A stretch of 64,000 nucleotides of DNA from Acidimicrobiia bacterium (GTDB lineage Bacteria > Actinomycetota > Acidimicrobiia > Spongiisociales > JAHEDJ01), in NCBI GenBank assembly GCA_029210695.1, contig JARGFH010000003.1, positions 1 to 64,000 of the forward strand. The letters run 5' to 3'. A program made the position numbers and the translations under genes. The notes beneath the pieces are model-generated. The model ran no database searches and was not told the origin of the DNA. It worked only from the letters and a program-made list of their open reading frames with translations. Shown here one piece after another: positions 4,277 to 8,806 of the stretch (positions are counted from its first letter, which is position 1; the number at the start of each line of letters is the position of its first letter).

Positions 4277-4370
4277 CCGGTCGGCTCCCGGCCCGTCACC
4301 CGCGATTCCCGTCATTGTGGCGAGAACAGCAAAAACACCTGAAGAGTCAGCTTCCGCGAACGGGCCGTCC

Positions 4371-4481
4371 TGGTTACACTCGCGGCACTTCCCGCGCGGC
4401 TTTGAGAAGCTACGCGTCCATCCTGCTCCGTCAGATCGGCGGGGCCTTCCACGCAGGTGGATGTCCAGAGGAGGAGAACAG
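4371..4481 (+). promoter_or_regulatory. Extended -10 promoter and probable S6:S18 autoregulatory leader
   Basis: TGGTTACACT, then a two-part stem (TCCATCCTGC/GCAGGTGGA enclosing CTCCGTC/GGCGGGG) with a CC-containing internal loop just before the rpsF RBS. Confidence 0.55.
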
Positions 4482-4778
4482 ATGAGGAACTACGAGGTGA
4501 TGACCATTCACCGGCCCGAAATCGCGGAGGCCGATGTTCGGTTGAAGGTCGCCGAGATCGAAGCGCTGCTCAAAGCACGTGGCGCCGAGGTCACGGACAG
4601 CGATTTCTGGGGCAAGCGCCGTTTTGCCTATGAGATCAACCACATTCGAGAGGGCTTCTACTCGGTCGTGCAATTCGATCTTGAAGCATCGCCCGAGGCA
4701 CTCGAAGATCTCGATCGGGCACTGACTCTGTCCGACGCCGTCGTACGTCACAAGGTCGTGCGACGAGATAACCGCTGA
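4482..4778 (+). CDS. rpsF: 30S ribosomal protein S6
   Basis: MRNYEVM, WGKRRFAYEI, VVRHKV; synteny with ssb-rpsR-rplI. Confidence 0.95.
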   Translation: MRNYEVMTIHRPEIAEADVRLKVAEIEALLKARGAEVTDSDFWGKRRFAYEINHIREGFYSVVQFDLEASPEALEDLDRALTLSDAVVRHKVVRRDNR

Positions 4779-4840
4779 GAAACGGGATCTGTCACACCCT
4801 GCCCGCATAGTGAGGGTGTCCATCCCGAGGAGAGAAGAAC

Positions 4841-5293
4841 ATGGCGACAAATACCGTGACCGTTATCGGCAATCTGGTCGAGGATCCTGAACTTCGGTTC
4901 ACCGGATCCGGCGTGGCGATGGCGAAGATTCGTTGTGCCGTCAACCGGCGCTGGCGTGATCAAGCCGGCGAATGGCAAGAAGAGACCAGTTTCCTGGGCG
5001 GAACGCTCTGGCGTGAGGCCGCTGAGAATGCAGCCGAGTCATTGCAGAAGGGCATGCGGGTGATCGTTACCGGCCGCCTCGAGCAACGCAGTTGGGAAAC
5101 AACGGACGGCGACAAGAGGTCGGTTGTTGAGATTTCCATCGACGAACTCGGCCCCAGCCTCCGGTGGGCCACCGCAACCGTAACGAAGACACAGAAGCAG
5201 GGTGGAGGCGATTGGGGCGACAAAGCCGCGACGTCGATGCCGGCTGCGCCCGTCGCCCGCGAGACATACGGCCCCGACGAAGCGCCGTTCTAG
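4841..5293 (+). CDS. ssb: Single-stranded DNA-binding protein
   Basis: [23 protein letters not shown], acidic DEAPF tail. Confidence 0.97.
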
Positions 5294-5301
5294 GAGACAA
5301 C

Positions 5302-5562
5302 ATGGCACGCCCCGATAACAAACGTAGAAAGCGCCGGCCCGAGAACGGGCGGCGATTCAAGAAGAAGGTCTGCTACTTCTGCAAAGAGAAGATCGAGTAC
5401 GTCGACTACAAAGATGTGGCGATCCTCCGTAAGTACATGTCGGATCGGGCGAAGATTCGCTCCCGCCGTGTGACCGGGAACTGCACCCAGCACCAGCGTG
5501 AGGTGGCCCTGGCCATCAAGAACGCCCGTGAGATGGCGCTGATGCCGTACACGAGCCGATGA
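5302..5562 (+). CDS. rpsR: 30S ribosomal protein S18 (Zn-binding C+ form)
   Basis: [30 protein letters not shown]. Confidence 0.96.
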
Positions 5563-6008
5563 CCAAGCTCATACTGATCAAAGACGTGGACGGGGTCGGC
5601 GCAGCCGGCCAGGTCGTCCAGGTATCGGACGGGTATGCCCGCAACTTCCTTCTTCCGAAGCACCTGGCCGTGAAGGCCAGCGACGGTGCCCTCAAGAATG
5701 CTGAAGCGGCCAACAAGGCTCGCGAGGAGACCGAACGACGCGGCCGGGACGCTGCCCAGCTCATTGCTACGCAGCTCGCCGGTACCCGGGTGGTCATCGC
5801 CGCCCAGGCAGGTGACGAGGGCAAGTTGTTCGGCTCGATCGGTGTCGCCGACGTCGTTGAGGGAGTGCAGAAGTTCACGGGAATCGAACTCGATCGCAGA
5901 ACGGTGCGGCTCGCCGAGCCGATCAAGACGATCGGACTCCACGAGGCAATCATCAAGCTGCATTCCGACGTTGAGTTCCCGCTCTCGTTGGACATCATCC
6001 CGGCCTGA
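5559..6008 (+). CDS. rplI: 50S ribosomal protein L9
   Basis: [21 protein letters not shown]. Confidence 0.96.
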
Positions 6009-8806
6009 TGACGGCTGAGGCCCGACCTCCAACGGGCCGCTCGACGGCTCGCCCCGAATCGCGGGGAAGTTCAGGTCGTGTGCCTCCGCATAATCTCGAA
6101 GCTGAGGAGTCGGTCCTCGGGGCAGTGATGCTCTCGTCCGACGCCGCCAACTCGGTGATGGACAAGCTCGCCCCCGAGGACTTCTACGTCCCGGCCCACC
6201 AAGCGATTTTCGAGGCAGTTGCCCGGCTCTACAACAGCAACCAGCCGATCGATATCGTCACGGTGTCCGATTCCCTCCGCCGCAGTGAGGAGATTGATCG
6301 GATTGGTGGCGTTGTCTACCTCACCGAACTGATGGAGCGGGTGCCGACCGCCTCGAACGTCGACTACTACGCCACCATCGTCGAGGAGCACGCACTCCGT
6401 CGCAGCTTGCTGCAGGCGGGAGCGCGGATCACCGATTTTGCCTTGCAGACGGATGAGGAGATCATCGACATCCTCGACAACGCCGAGCAAACGGTGCTTG
6501 GTGTAGCCGAACGGCGAGTTGGTGACGGATTGCAGCCGATTGCCCCGCTGCTGCAATCGACCCTCGAGGTCATTGAAGAACTCGAGGCTTCGGGGAACGC
6601 GATTACCGGTCTGGCGACCGGCTATCGGGATCTCGATGTCAAGCTGGCCGGATTGCACCCCGCCAATCTGTTGATCGTGGCGGCCAGGCCGAGCATGGGC
6701 AAGTGTCTGGTTGGGTCAACGAGAGTTGTGGACCCGAAGACCGGCGCGATGACGGCGATCGAAGATCTCGTCGGCGATACCGAGTCACAGGGCCTCCAAC
6801 ATGTGTTTGCCTACGATGAAACGGAACGGCAACTTGTGACCGCCAGTCCCTCCGCCTGGGCAGACAACGGCCCGAGGGAGACGTTTTGCCTAACCACGCG
6901 GCTAGGTCGAACGATCACCGCCACCGCTAATCATCCGGTCTTGACCTGGACGGGGTGGAGGCGACTCGACCAGGTGGAGATCGGCCAGCCCATCGCAGTA
7001 GCCGGCCGTGTCGATGTCTTTGGTGTCGACCGCCTTCCCGAAGCCGAGGTCGCACTCCTCGGATTGCTTATCGGTGATGGGACTACGACGGGGACGAGTC
7101 CGAAATTCACTACGGCCGATCCCACGCTTCTCGCCGAACTGGAGCGCCTTGCTCGTGATATGGGCATGCAGGTGACCGGCCATGGGGATCACTCGCTGAC
7201 CTACCGAATTGTCGGACGGTCGGACCGTCCCTCTCAGAAGGATGTCGCCGCTGCTTCCGGAGTATCGGACGCAACGGTCTCACTGGCCCTGTCCGGGAAG
7301 CCGGGACCATCGGAGGCCACTCGGGCTAGCGTTCTGGCAGCTGCGGAGAAGCTTGGGTACAGGAACGAAGGTGCTCGGCCTCCGAATCCATTGGTTGGGA
7401 TCCTTGAACGGCATGGCTTATGGGGCTGCGTTGCCGCAACGAAATTCGTACCCAACGCCGTGTTCAGGCTTCCAAAAGACCAACTCGCGCGCTTCCTTTC
7501 CCGACTCTATGCGACAGATGGCTCGGCCTGGGTATCGGGGGATTGTTACCGCATCGAATACGGCACGGTTTCGGAGCAACTTGCGCGCGACGTGCAACAT
7601 CTCTTGCTTCGGTTCGGCATTGTGGCCAAGTTGCGGCAGCGGCAGGTGCAGTACGCTGGTGATCGGCGGCCTTCGTTTGAGGTGGCGATCCAGGATCCCT
7701 ACTCGGTGCGTTTGTTTGCAGACCAGATCGGGATTCTGTCGAAGGAGCGTCAGGTTGCACAGGTGGTGGCCGCCGCTGAATCTCGTCTCACCGATCGCGC
7801 TCGCTCACGCCTCCTGCCGATGGAAGCATGGGATCTAATCCTTTCCGAGAAGGGCACAGCCAGCTGGGCAGACATCTCTGCTCGTTGCGGCAGGCCTCGG
7901 AACCACAACTGGCATGTGGGTCAACGGCGCCCTTCACGTCGTATCGTGTCTGAGCTGGCCGAAGCACTCAGCAGCGACGCCCTGCGCAGCCTGGCCAACT
8001 CGGATGTCGTTTGGGACGACGTCGTCTCTATCGAGCCCGCTGGTTGGCAGCGCACCTTCGACCTCGAGGTACCTCGTTACTCGAATTTCCTCGCAGGCGA
8101 TGTTGTTGTCCACAACAGCACGTTGGCGCTCAACATTGCCTCCAATATTGCAATGGACGGCGGGACCGTCGCGGTGTTCTCGATGGAGATGAGCAAGGAA
8201 GAGATCATCCAGCGGATGTTGTGCTCCGTCGGCCGGGTGGACTCGATGGCGTTGCGCACCGGCCAGCTCGACGCCAGGGGCTGGCAGCGGGTGGTCAATG
8301 CCGCATCGAAGATGTACCCGGCCCCGGTCTATGTAGATGACAGCGCGTCTGTGACCGTGACCGACATCAGAGCGAAAGCGCGCCGACTGAAGCGGCAGAA
8401 GGGTCTGGCGCTGATCGTCGTGGACTACATCCAACTCATGCAAGGGCGGAATCGTGAGAACCGTCAGCAGGAGATCGCCGAGATCAGCCGGAATCTCAAG
8501 AACCTGGCCCGTGAGCTCGACCTGCCCATCATCGCGGTGTCCCAGCTCAACCGTGGGTTGGAAGCCCGGGAGGACAAACGGCCCCGCCTGGGCGACTTGA
8601 GAGAATCGGGCGCGATCGAGCAAGACGCCGACATCGTGCTGTTCATCTACCGACACGAGTACTACTACCCGGACGATCCTGAATCCAAAGGCCTTGCCGA
8701 GGTGAACGTTGCCAAACATCGGGCCGGCGCAACAGGCAAAGTCGATATGACCTTCCTGCCTCGCTACACCTTGTTTGCCGATGTCGGGCGGGATGTCGGA
8801 CCCTAG
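6008..8806 (+). CDS. dnaB: Replicative DNA helicase with intein
   Basis: PPHNLEAE, ARPSMGK|S Walker A split by an insert, VDYIQLM, SQLNR, DLRESGAIEQDAD. Confidence 0.97.
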   Translation: MTAEARPPTGRSTARPESRGSSGRVPPHNLEAEESVLGAVMLSSDAANSVMDKLAPEDFYVPAHQAIFEAVARLYNSNQPIDIVTVSDSLRRSEEIDRIGGVVYLTELMERVPTASNVDYYATIVEEHALRRSLLQAGARITDFALQTDEEIIDILDNAEQTVLGVAERRVGDGLQPIAPLLQSTLEVIEELEASGNAITGLATGYRDLDVKLAGLHPANLLIVAARPSMGKCLVGSTRVVDPKTGAMTAIEDLVGDTESQGLQHVFAYDETERQLVTASPSAWADNGPRETFCLTTRLGRTITATANHPVLTWTGWRRLDQVEIGQPIAVAGRVDVFGVDRLPEAEVALLGLLIGDGTTTGTSPKFTTADPTLLAELERLARDMGMQVTGHGDHSLTYRIVGRSDRPSQKDVAAASGVSDATVSLALSGKPGPSEATRASVLAAAEKLGYRNEGARPPNPLVGILERHGLWGCVAATKFVPNAVFRLPKDQLARFLSRLYATDGSAWVSGDCYRIEYGTVSEQLARDVQHLLLRFGIVAKLRQRQVQYAGDRRPSFEVAIQDPYSVRLFADQIGILSKERQVAQVVAAAESRLTDRARSRLLPMEAWDLILSEKGTASWADISARCGRPRNHNWHVGQRRPSRRIVSELAEALSSDALRSLANSDVVWDDVVSIEPAGWQRTFDLEVPRYSNFLAGDVVVHNSTLALNIASNIAMDGGTVAVFSMEMSKEEIIQRMLCSVGRVDSMALRTGQLDARGWQRVVNAASKMYPAPVYVDDSASVTVTDIRAKARRLKRQKGLALIVVDYIQLMQGRNRENRQQEIAEISRNLKNLARELDLPIIAVSQLNRGLEAREDKRPRLGDLRESGAIEQDADIVLFIYRHEYYYPDDPESKGLAEVNVAKHRAGATGKVDMTFLPRYTLFADVGRDVGP
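6704..8116 (+). mobile_element. Class 1 intein (471 aa) with LAGLIDADG homing endonuclease and an inserted LacI-type HTH
   Basis: Block A CLVGST, block B TANHPV, LLGLLIGDG and FLSRLYATDG motifs, block F/G TFDLEV...VVHN followed by +1 Ser. Confidence 0.95.

Follow-up and report, generated by a model that had tools for sequence, protein, structure and literature searches.

Several inteins that combine a HINT splicing domain with a LAGLIDADG homing endonuclease contain extra, non-catalytic domains, namely the accessory domains (ACDs) of the archaeal inteins TliVMA (7qss), PI-TkoII (2cw7) and PI-PfuI (1dq3) and the DNA recognition region of PI-SceI, two of which are helix-turn-helix (HTH)-like. 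They are located between the endonuclease and the HINT parts (within HINT in PI-SceI) and show no significant sequence family. In I-TevI, I-BmoI and other GIY-YIG or HNH enzymes, the target is lengthened by a small DNA-binding module that is joined to the nuclease core but separate from it; there, the nuclease fold is a different one and, in the I-TevI/I-BmoI type, the HTH is placed C-terminally on a long flexible linker. For the TliVMA intein, the accessible parts of PMC8966425 report that, without its HTH-like accessory domain, the protein bound DNA less well and cleaved in a changed pattern, in which a second site was no longer cut (cleavage itself persisted), and that a grafted 434-repressor DNA-binding domain changed the digestion profile. 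Here, we describe an extra domain in the DnaB intein of an Acidimicrobiia bacterium (assembly GCA_029210695.1), encoded in the first 64,000 nucleotides of contig JARGFH010000003.1 (the whole stretch analysed, hereafter the window). In contrast to the known cases, it is a clear member of a bacterial repressor domain family, the LacI headpiece, and it is nested inside the core fold of the catalytic domain.

The headpiece proper is encoded at positions 7229-7363 of the forward strand, in frame within the dnaB open reading frame (ORF). Its translation, PSQKDVAAASGVSDATVSLALSGKPGPSEATRASVLAAAEKLGYR, is exactly the one quoted in an earlier note on this DNA, which had placed a LacI headpiece between the two LAGLIDADG motifs of the DnaB intein; that assignment was borne out by sequence profile, PDB and fold comparisons. 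The Pfam LacI family (PF00356, curated cut-off 27 bits) matched the module with 41.8 bits in the whole protein (E 9e-11, profile positions 3-44 of 46), with 48.3 bits when the 45 amino acids were searched alone (E 8.9e-13) and with 46.9 bits in a six-frame search of the genome with the LacI profile, while HTH_3 reached only 18-20 bits, under its cut-off of 23 bits. A phmmer search of the 59-residue module against PDB sequences gave significant matches to LacI-family proteins only (4o5a, E 2e-10; 3kjx, 7e-7; 3bil, 6e-5; CcpA, 2e-4). The alignment to 4o5a covers 47 residues (ALSGKPGPSEATR vs. ALNGKPGVSDATR, through to LGYRNEGAR vs. LGWRPNGAA), includes the stretch ALxGKPGxSxATR and reaches the first residues of the hinge region. 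The AlphaFold2 (AF2) model of the 59 residues, built with 24 relatives as the alignment, had a predicted local distance difference test score (pLDDT) of 84 and three helices (residues 9-16, 20-28 and 35-48). When this model was compared with the PDB by Foldseek, all 39 rows listed above rank 46 were LacI/GalR proteins (CcpA, CelR, LacI, RbsR, PurR, CytR, SghR), superposed mostly at a root-mean-square deviation (rmsd) of 0.6-1.6 Å over 44-49 columns (e.g., CcpA 3oqo, 0.7 Å over 46 columns with 46% identity), and the first row of another family was HipB at rank 46 with an rmsd of 8.2 Å. The Foldseek E-values were modest (best 5e-3) because the domain is small. Taken by Pfam, PDB sequence and fold, the module is a genuine LacI-type three-helix headpiece.

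The LacI/GalR regulators used for comparison (4o5a, CcpA 3oqo, the LacI headpiece 1l1m/1lcc, PurR and CytR) share the sequence and the fold of the three-helix headpiece with the module, which differs from them in having no hinge helix, core or dimer, in not being N-terminal and in having Leu at the position of LacI Arg22. The earlier note had stated that the hinge helix and the sugar-binding core were missing, and this held: in the whole-intein model no hinge helix follows the headpiece, as 11 non-helical residues come after LGYR and then helix alpha3 of the endonuclease, and no Pfam match to Peripla_BP, the periplasmic-binding-protein-like effector and dimerisation core, was present in the 932-residue protein. 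Only the first hinge-region residues could be aligned to 4o5a.

The nearest kin of the module were searched for with an 86-residue query (module plus immediate flanks) in a library of 1.84 billion representative proteins, which gave 922 matches at E <= 0.001. Among the best 150 of these, 147 had no flanking endonuclease sequence and three (P0128, P0136, P0198) were DnaB-intein forms; Pfam scans of 16 of these proteins identified 11 LacI-family regulators or HTH proteins and three intein forms. The closest kin in the library are LacI headpieces with 45-66% identity. The same matches include proteins of odd architecture: P0123 (3982 residues) and P0196 (1268 residues) are giant proteins made largely of repeated HTH domains, and in the first of them LacI scores 197.7 bits over 5 stretches, numerous further HTH families are present and the query matches 10 stretches. 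Furthermore, P0124, P0130, P0132, P0134, P0138, P0141, P0193, P0210 and P0235 (~700-830 residues) have two LacI headpieces, mostly with one or two periplasmic-binding-like cores, and look like tandem LacI-family regulator fusions or fused gene calls. The host genome itself encodes three native LacI headpieces, 47%, 41% and 29% identical to the intein module, and the intein copy ends where the native hinge helix begins. A recent capture from these host genes was considered as a source of the module and rejected, given the low identities and a GC content at third codon positions (GC3) equal to that of the surrounding intein.

A chimeric joining of a piece of a LacI regulator gene into dnaB during assembly or annotation would also put a headpiece at this place, and the window does come from an assembly of 181 contigs; in addition, the public reads (two DNA runs, shares 0.16 and 0.06) placed four contigs of ~150 bases, none of them over 7229-7363. 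The probability of such an artefact is nevertheless negligible, considering that the frame is open through both junctions, that the insert recurs, at an identical residue, in 24 proteins of other assemblies as well as in eight more genomes of the order, that the insert and the remainder of the intein agree in GC3 (0.64 vs. 0.65) and that AF2 folds the whole intein at a pLDDT of 95.6.

This whole-intein model (predicted template modelling score, pTM, 0.92; pLDDT in successive blocks across the module 87, 97, 94, 97, 92 and 80) resembled most closely PI-TkoII (2cw7, Z 33.6) and TliVMA (7qss, Z 33.3, 379 of the 471 residues aligned). It shows a double-motif monomeric LAGLIDADG endonuclease with two motif helices bearing D125 and D272 and with the alpha-beta-beta-alpha-beta-beta-alpha fold of the half-domains, in which the first hairpin of the N-terminal half is reduced to one strand (134-136). 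The order of elements in this half is LAGLIDADG helix 113-125, strand 134-136, helix 140-152, strands 155-159 and 166-171, the headpiece helices and helix 229-236. In the C-terminal half, the equivalent junction is a two-residue turn between strand 320-329 and helix 332-341, and thus the module fills the beta4-alpha3 junction of the N-terminal half-domain, to which it is tied by linkers of ~6 and ~11 residues. Instead of linking the endonuclease to HINT, as ACDs do, it lies within the endonuclease half-domain. The intein has, in addition, a helical region (intein 346-431) at the usual accessory-domain position. This region (window 7739-7996; five helices, including the segment SWADISARCGR) occupies the place of the archaeal accessory domains, so that the intein may hold two accessory DNA-binding modules.

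In order to place the module among allelic inteins, relatives were searched with DnaB residues 340-560, which gave 543 matches, and the best 120 were analysed. The window's own protein (P0003), six N-terminally cut sequences without a parsable P-loop (P0010, P0023, P0054, P0058, P0095, P0108) and four without a parsable intein end (P0071, P0089, P0092, P0093) were dropped, leading to a final set of 110 inteins, including the window's, all at one dnaB site. The beta4-alpha3 loop contains only a short turn in 57 of them (0-24 residues, 7-10 in 51), a short module of ~45 residues in 25 and a long module of ~75 residues in 28. The short form is present in 24 inteins besides the window's, at the same place and in register with it, and LacI was the best HTH family in 23 of these 24 (15 above the cut-off and 8 at 18-25 bits; P0026 had no match). 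None of the 28 long modules matched LacI at E <= 0.01, whereas 25 matched HTH_3 or HTH_31 (13 above a curated cut-off), which makes them XRE-type. These XRE-type modules, found, for example, in cyanobacterial, gammaproteobacterial and Rubrobacteraceae DnaB proteins, share the intein family, the dnaB site and the endonuclease loop with the module described here, but they are of another HTH family, exceed it in length by ~30 residues (an additional helix at the N-terminus and a segment at the C-terminus) and fall into the opposite deep clade of the tree described below. The profile search, allele alignment and structure prediction proposed by the earlier note thus gave a significant LacI match, an insert that is present in 25 of 110 alleles and conserved, and a three-helix model.

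A quick IQ-TREE phylogeny (LG+G4, 411 columns, insert columns removed) split the inteins into two clades with a support of 100 each, one with the 28 long and 10 insert-less rows and the other with the 25 short and 47 insert-less rows. Within the latter, the insert is absent from five basal groups (26 rows), the short forms are found inside a 46-row group (support 83; 44 of the rows at 99), and an insert-less clade of 21 rows (support 100) is nested among the carriers, so that two changes on the tree account for the short form. Constraining the 25 carriers to a single clade was 50.9 log-likelihood units worse (approximately unbiased, AU, test p 0.04), a marginal result for a group named after the tree had been seen. 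On this topology, the history of the module is best read as one capture of a LacI headpiece followed by one later clean deletion. The LacI-type and the XRE-type modules would probably represent two separate captures, a view favoured by the likeness of the short form to LacI regulators, which extends into the start of the hinge. Alternatively, the module could be a shortened and diverged descendant of an XRE-type HTH already present in the common ancestor of the DnaB-b inteins, with the same function. Both HTH types are found in exactly one loop, LacI and XRE headpieces share the lambda-repressor-like fold, and a deletion is easier than a gain, which makes parsimony weak evidence; moreover, a profile-profile comparison aligned the short and long inserts with a probability of 96% (E 2e-9) over 43 columns, as expected of related HTH folds. 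We consider this descent rather unlikely, in view of the reciprocally exclusive Pfam matches, the 47-residue alignment to the LacI regulator 4o5a including the first hinge residues, the identity of 45-66% to LacI headpieces, and the five insert-less basal groups that separate the two HTH clades and leave only two changes to the short form.

With a probability of roughly 0.6, we read the LacI headpiece as captured from a LacI-family regulator gene and as providing the homing endonuclease with accessory DNA binding. According to this proposal, a LacI-family headpiece would have entered the DnaB-b intein at the beta4-alpha3 loop of its N-terminal LAGLIDADG half-domain, where it would be held rigidly by short linkers and could add contacts to the DNA beside the core target in an intein-free dnaB, and these contacts would raise the affinity and extend or loosen target recognition during homing. 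The binding of DNA by the module, the side of the target that it would face and its effect on specificity are inferred. A role in endonuclease recognition fits because the module occupies a loop at the surface of an endonuclease whose catalytic residues all 25 carriers retain, and because it is dispensable and parallels the accessory domains studied experimentally in other inteins. Judging by the allele comparison, neither splicing nor the retention of the endonuclease depends on the module, since it was cleanly lost in the nested 21-row clade, and it would have no role in DnaB function, as it is removed together with the intein.

The conservation of the module was compared with that of the other parts of the intein. 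In the 25 carriers, the most frequent residue of a column reached a mean frequency of 0.58 in the module, 0.62 in HINT-N, 0.60 in the N-half and 0.77 in the C-half of the endonuclease, and 0.69 in HINT-C. The residues D125, D272, K247, C1, H77 and N471 are kept in all 25 carriers and H470 in 24, while D125 is retained in 25/25 short, 28/28 long and 55/57 insert-less forms. The conserved columns of the module are those of the LacI signature (Q.D+A..+GVS.+TV+L.L....T+.+V..AA..LGY), with an invariant Thr before helix 3, and no carrier has a frameshift or a stop. Proportions of nonsynonymous (pN) and synonymous (pS) differences in the module were obtained for five genomic allele pairs and, where given, the ratio of nonsynonymous to synonymous substitution rates (dN/dS): 0.22/0.74 in L038/L039 (synonymous rate, dS, saturated), 0.21/0.63 in L042/L043 (dN/dS 0.18), 0.32/0.73 in L040/L042 (dN/dS 0.15), 0.04/0.085 in L040/L041 (dN/dS 0.46, from few changes) and 0.51/0.76 in L044/L045 (dS saturated). 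The pN of the same pairs ranged from 0.03 to 0.49 in the other intein segments and from 0.00 to 0.17 in the exteins. Because pN is lower than pS in all five pairs, the module is considered to be under purifying selection.

Several observations weigh against a role in DNA recognition. In three of the five pairs (L040/L041, L042/L043 and L044/L045), the protein sequence of the module changes faster than that of any other intein segment (for instance, a pN of 0.21 vs. 0.05-0.14 in L042/L043), which could be relaxed constraint as well as changing specificity. The equivalent of LacI Arg22, which we take to be a base contact, is Leu in 18 of the 25 carriers and Ile in one, and the window's module has Asp at the first position of the recognition helix; the concern over the lost Arg is eased by 4o5a, the nearest solved LacI regulator, which has Tyr at that position. 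An isolated LacI headpiece without its hinge and dimer partner binds DNA weakly. Lineages that lost the module keep their catalytic residues, and therefore any benefit from it is not large. Finally, the relatives were picked by their similarity to an intact endonuclease, which favours intact copies. The replacement of Arg22, the high pN in three pairs and the loss in the 21-row clade would equally be expected if the module were a passenger or structural filler, i.e., captured once, folding, tolerated in a permissive loop and persisting since clean deletions are rare, with no contribution to DNA binding or homing; the 8 of 24 relatives under the Pfam cut-off and the one with no match point in the same direction. 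We regard this as unlikely, as pN is well under pS in every pair, the reading frame is intact in all carriers and the conserved positions are the LacI signature, including the Ser/Thr of GVS.ATVS and the invariant Thr before helix 3, presumably phosphate contacts. In addition, a second, unrelated HTH family in the same loop of the sister clade is hard to square with a mere tolerance of junk. Going further than the recognition role preferred here, the beta4-alpha3 loop of the DnaB-b intein endonuclease could be a natural plug-in socket, into which LacI-type and XRE-type headpieces were captured independently and from which they can be cleanly lost, providing the selfish endonuclease with a swappable, fast-evolving target-recognition module that helps it to invade diverged dnaB alleles across families; this wider idea is offered as a tentative possibility.

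The distribution of the intein was surveyed in genomes of the window's class and order. Among 401 sampled genomes of the class, 62 had some intein match (a tally that includes the unpublished G389, which is used for no other result), and residues 1-471 were fully matched only in G000 and G266. From these genomes 30 loci were retrieved, of which 13 were parsable DnaB-b inteins (two with the module, eight of 416-418 residues without it and three shortened to 188-378 residues), and the remaining 17 could not be parsed as DnaB-b inteins. In several of the 13, the first LAGLIDADG motif is degenerate. The loci L008, L009, L011, L023, L024 and L028 show stages of decay, such as the loss of the first acidic residue (e.g., LIGSGC), a shortened endonuclease (331 and 378 residues) and a mini-intein of 188 residues, and these stages fit a homing cycle of invasion, decay and loss. 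In the order, 9 of 401 sampled genomes (G000 included), from four families, matched a 152-residue endonuclease plus HTH piece end to end, and nine further genomes matched it by LacI regulators only. Within the window's genus, one of six other genomes has the module form (G413, 70% identical in the 152-residue piece) and five have no module match. In two of these congeners, G288 and G294, dnaB is uninterrupted, its extein residues are identical (ARPSMGK followed by STLALNIASNIAMDGG; the empty P-loop site reads ARPSMGK/STLALNIA) and its N-extein is 87-89% identical to the window's. The GC3 is 0.65 in the intein and 0.64 in the module vs. 0.75 and 0.80 in the exteins, and the intein looks mobile because its codon usage differs from that of the host gene. 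By its sporadic spread, the empty sites of congeners and its deviant GC3, the intein behaves as a mobile element, and the same observations are indirect indications that its endonuclease may cleave the intein-free allele. When metagenome contigs were searched with the 152-residue piece, 266 patterns matched and none was confirmed.

The bin G266 holds both an intein-bearing dnaB fragment (L002/L034 on G266:C387, a 1.8-kb contig; 466-residue intein with the LacI module) and an intein-free dnaB (L033 on G266:C14) with nearly the same exteins. The two alleles differ most in the codons just 3' of the insertion point, Ser+1 being AGC in one and TCG in the other, and the bin may mix strains or combine an occupied allele with an empty one that is possibly resistant. 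The codon of Ser+1 is AGC or AGT in all nine HTH-form alleles (L038-L045 and L002), and insert-less and empty alleles also have TCC, TCG and ACG (Thr); such a bias may come from a target preference of the endonuclease or simply from taxonomy. No HTH-linked pattern was seen in the 60-base flanks on each side of 9 HTH-form, 8 insert-less and 3 empty alleles, groups that are small and differ in taxonomy and extein sequence.

The earlier note had suggested that the added module alters homing specificity, makes splicing responsive to DNA or acts as a regulator made 1:1 with DnaB. An altered or extended DNA recognition by the homing endonuclease fits the evidence given above, and the other two roles were left unsupported. 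They would require that the excised intein binds an operator or that DNA binding by the precursor controls the splicing of the helicase. The module does stem from a repressor family and the excised intein is predicted by the model to be a stable folded protein. WhiA, which has lost nuclease function, is a free-standing protein with a C-terminal HTH, in contrast to the intein described here, which keeps its catalytic residues and has its HTH nested; weak WhiA-LAGLIDADG Pfam matches were also present in relatives among the allelic inteins. The available parts of PMC3240954 and PMC11701221 show that WhiA likewise has a LAGLIDADG fold and an HTH in one chain, and that such a combination is able to become a transcription factor. 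For the intein, we consider a moonlighting function of this type very unlikely, as each monomeric protein has only one headpiece, which lacks a hinge helix and a dimerising core, and both catalytic Asp are kept in all 25 carriers, unlike in a domesticated scaffold. Moreover, five of the six sampled congeners have no module match (the two examined, G288 and G294, have no dnaB intein), only 9 of the 401 genomes of the order carry the piece and therefore no conserved host function depends on the module, and the codon usage of the intein is unlike that of the host gene.

Regarding novelty, which the earlier note had rated highly, no description of an intein endonuclease with a nested HTH of LacI or XRE type was found in the full-text literature, with a limited coverage of subscription journals and without the supplements of PMC4760082. 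The rating was too high, given that accessory domains of HTH type are published, that an XRE-type HTH is found in the same loop of the sister clade and that PF00356 is already annotated: 19 proteins among the 120 matches listed bear it as a precomputed annotation. What sets the present case apart is the nesting inside the endonuclease core fold, the clear membership in the LacI headpiece family and the second HTH family in the same loop of the sister clade. Homing endonucleases serve as scaffolds in genome engineering, and little is understood about their accessory DNA-binding domains. With a well-understood repressor headpiece placed rigidly inside a LAGLIDADG core, the module is a natural counterpart of the repressor-domain grafting described in the accessible parts of Beyer et al. 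(PMC8966425). Close natural controls exist as alleles without the module or with a different HTH, and the system allows the effect of an added HTH on the affinity, length and tolerance of the target site to be asked directly. It also shows selfish elements recruiting parts of host regulators, and it has no evident bearing on the function of the helicase.

The coordinates of all features are collected in the table below.

Table 1. Parts of the dnaB gene and its intein, with their positions in the window
Feature	Position	Strand	Evidence
dnaB replicative helicase precursor ORF, 932 aa	6008..8806	+	DnaB_C 324 bits, DnaB N-terminal domain 125 bits (Pfam)
Intein, 471 aa, in the Walker A P-loop	6704..8116	+	junctions ...ARPSMGK/CLVGSTRVV...GDVVVHN/STLALNIA; Intein_splicing 61.7 bits
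HINT domain, N-terminal part, with C1 and block B T74/H77	6704..7033	+	Ssp DnaB mini-intein 1mi8, E 3e-20; C1 and H77 invariant in 77 rows
N-terminal LAGLIDADG half-domain up to strand beta4	7034..7216	+	helix 113-125; strands 134-136, 155-159, 166-171 (AF2 model)
LAGLIDADG motif 1, LLGLLIGDG, intein 118-126, catalytic D125	7055-7081	+	
Inserted module with linkers, intein 172-228	7217..7387	+	only 7-10 residues there in insert-less alleles
LacI-type headpiece proper, intein 176-220	7229-7363	+	helices 178-185, 189-196 (recognition helix DATVSLAL), 204-217
Helix alpha3 of the N-terminal half (229-236) and linker with invariant K247 (TKFVP)	7388..7474	+	K247 in 110/110 inteins
C-terminal LAGLIDADG half-domain	7475..7726	+	LAGLIDADG_3 70.9 bits
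LAGLIDADG motif 2, FLSRLYATDG, intein 264-273, catalytic D272	7493-7522	+	D272 in 25/25 short forms
Helical region, intein 346-431, after the endonuclease and before the C-terminal HINT part	7739..7996	+	helices 348-359, 375-383, 388-394, 412-422, 425-431
HINT domain, C-terminal part, ending H470-N471, then Ser+1	8006..8116	+	alignment and Ssp DnaB mini-intein match

The P-loop site of DnaB is named 'insertion point b' in the accessible parts of PMC4760082. The intein at this site has the features of class 1, with GK/C at the upstream junction, Cys1, block B T74/H77, the terminal H470-N471 and Ser+1. Since its splicing motifs are intact and dnaB is an essential gene, the precursor is inferred to splice. 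The true start of dnaB is uncertain, as the end of rplI (6008) is also the start of the longest dnaB ORF and the database protein (P0003, 908 residues) begins 24 codons later. dnaB is the last gene of the row rpsF-ssb-rpsR-rplI-dnaB, which spans positions 4317-8806 of the window.

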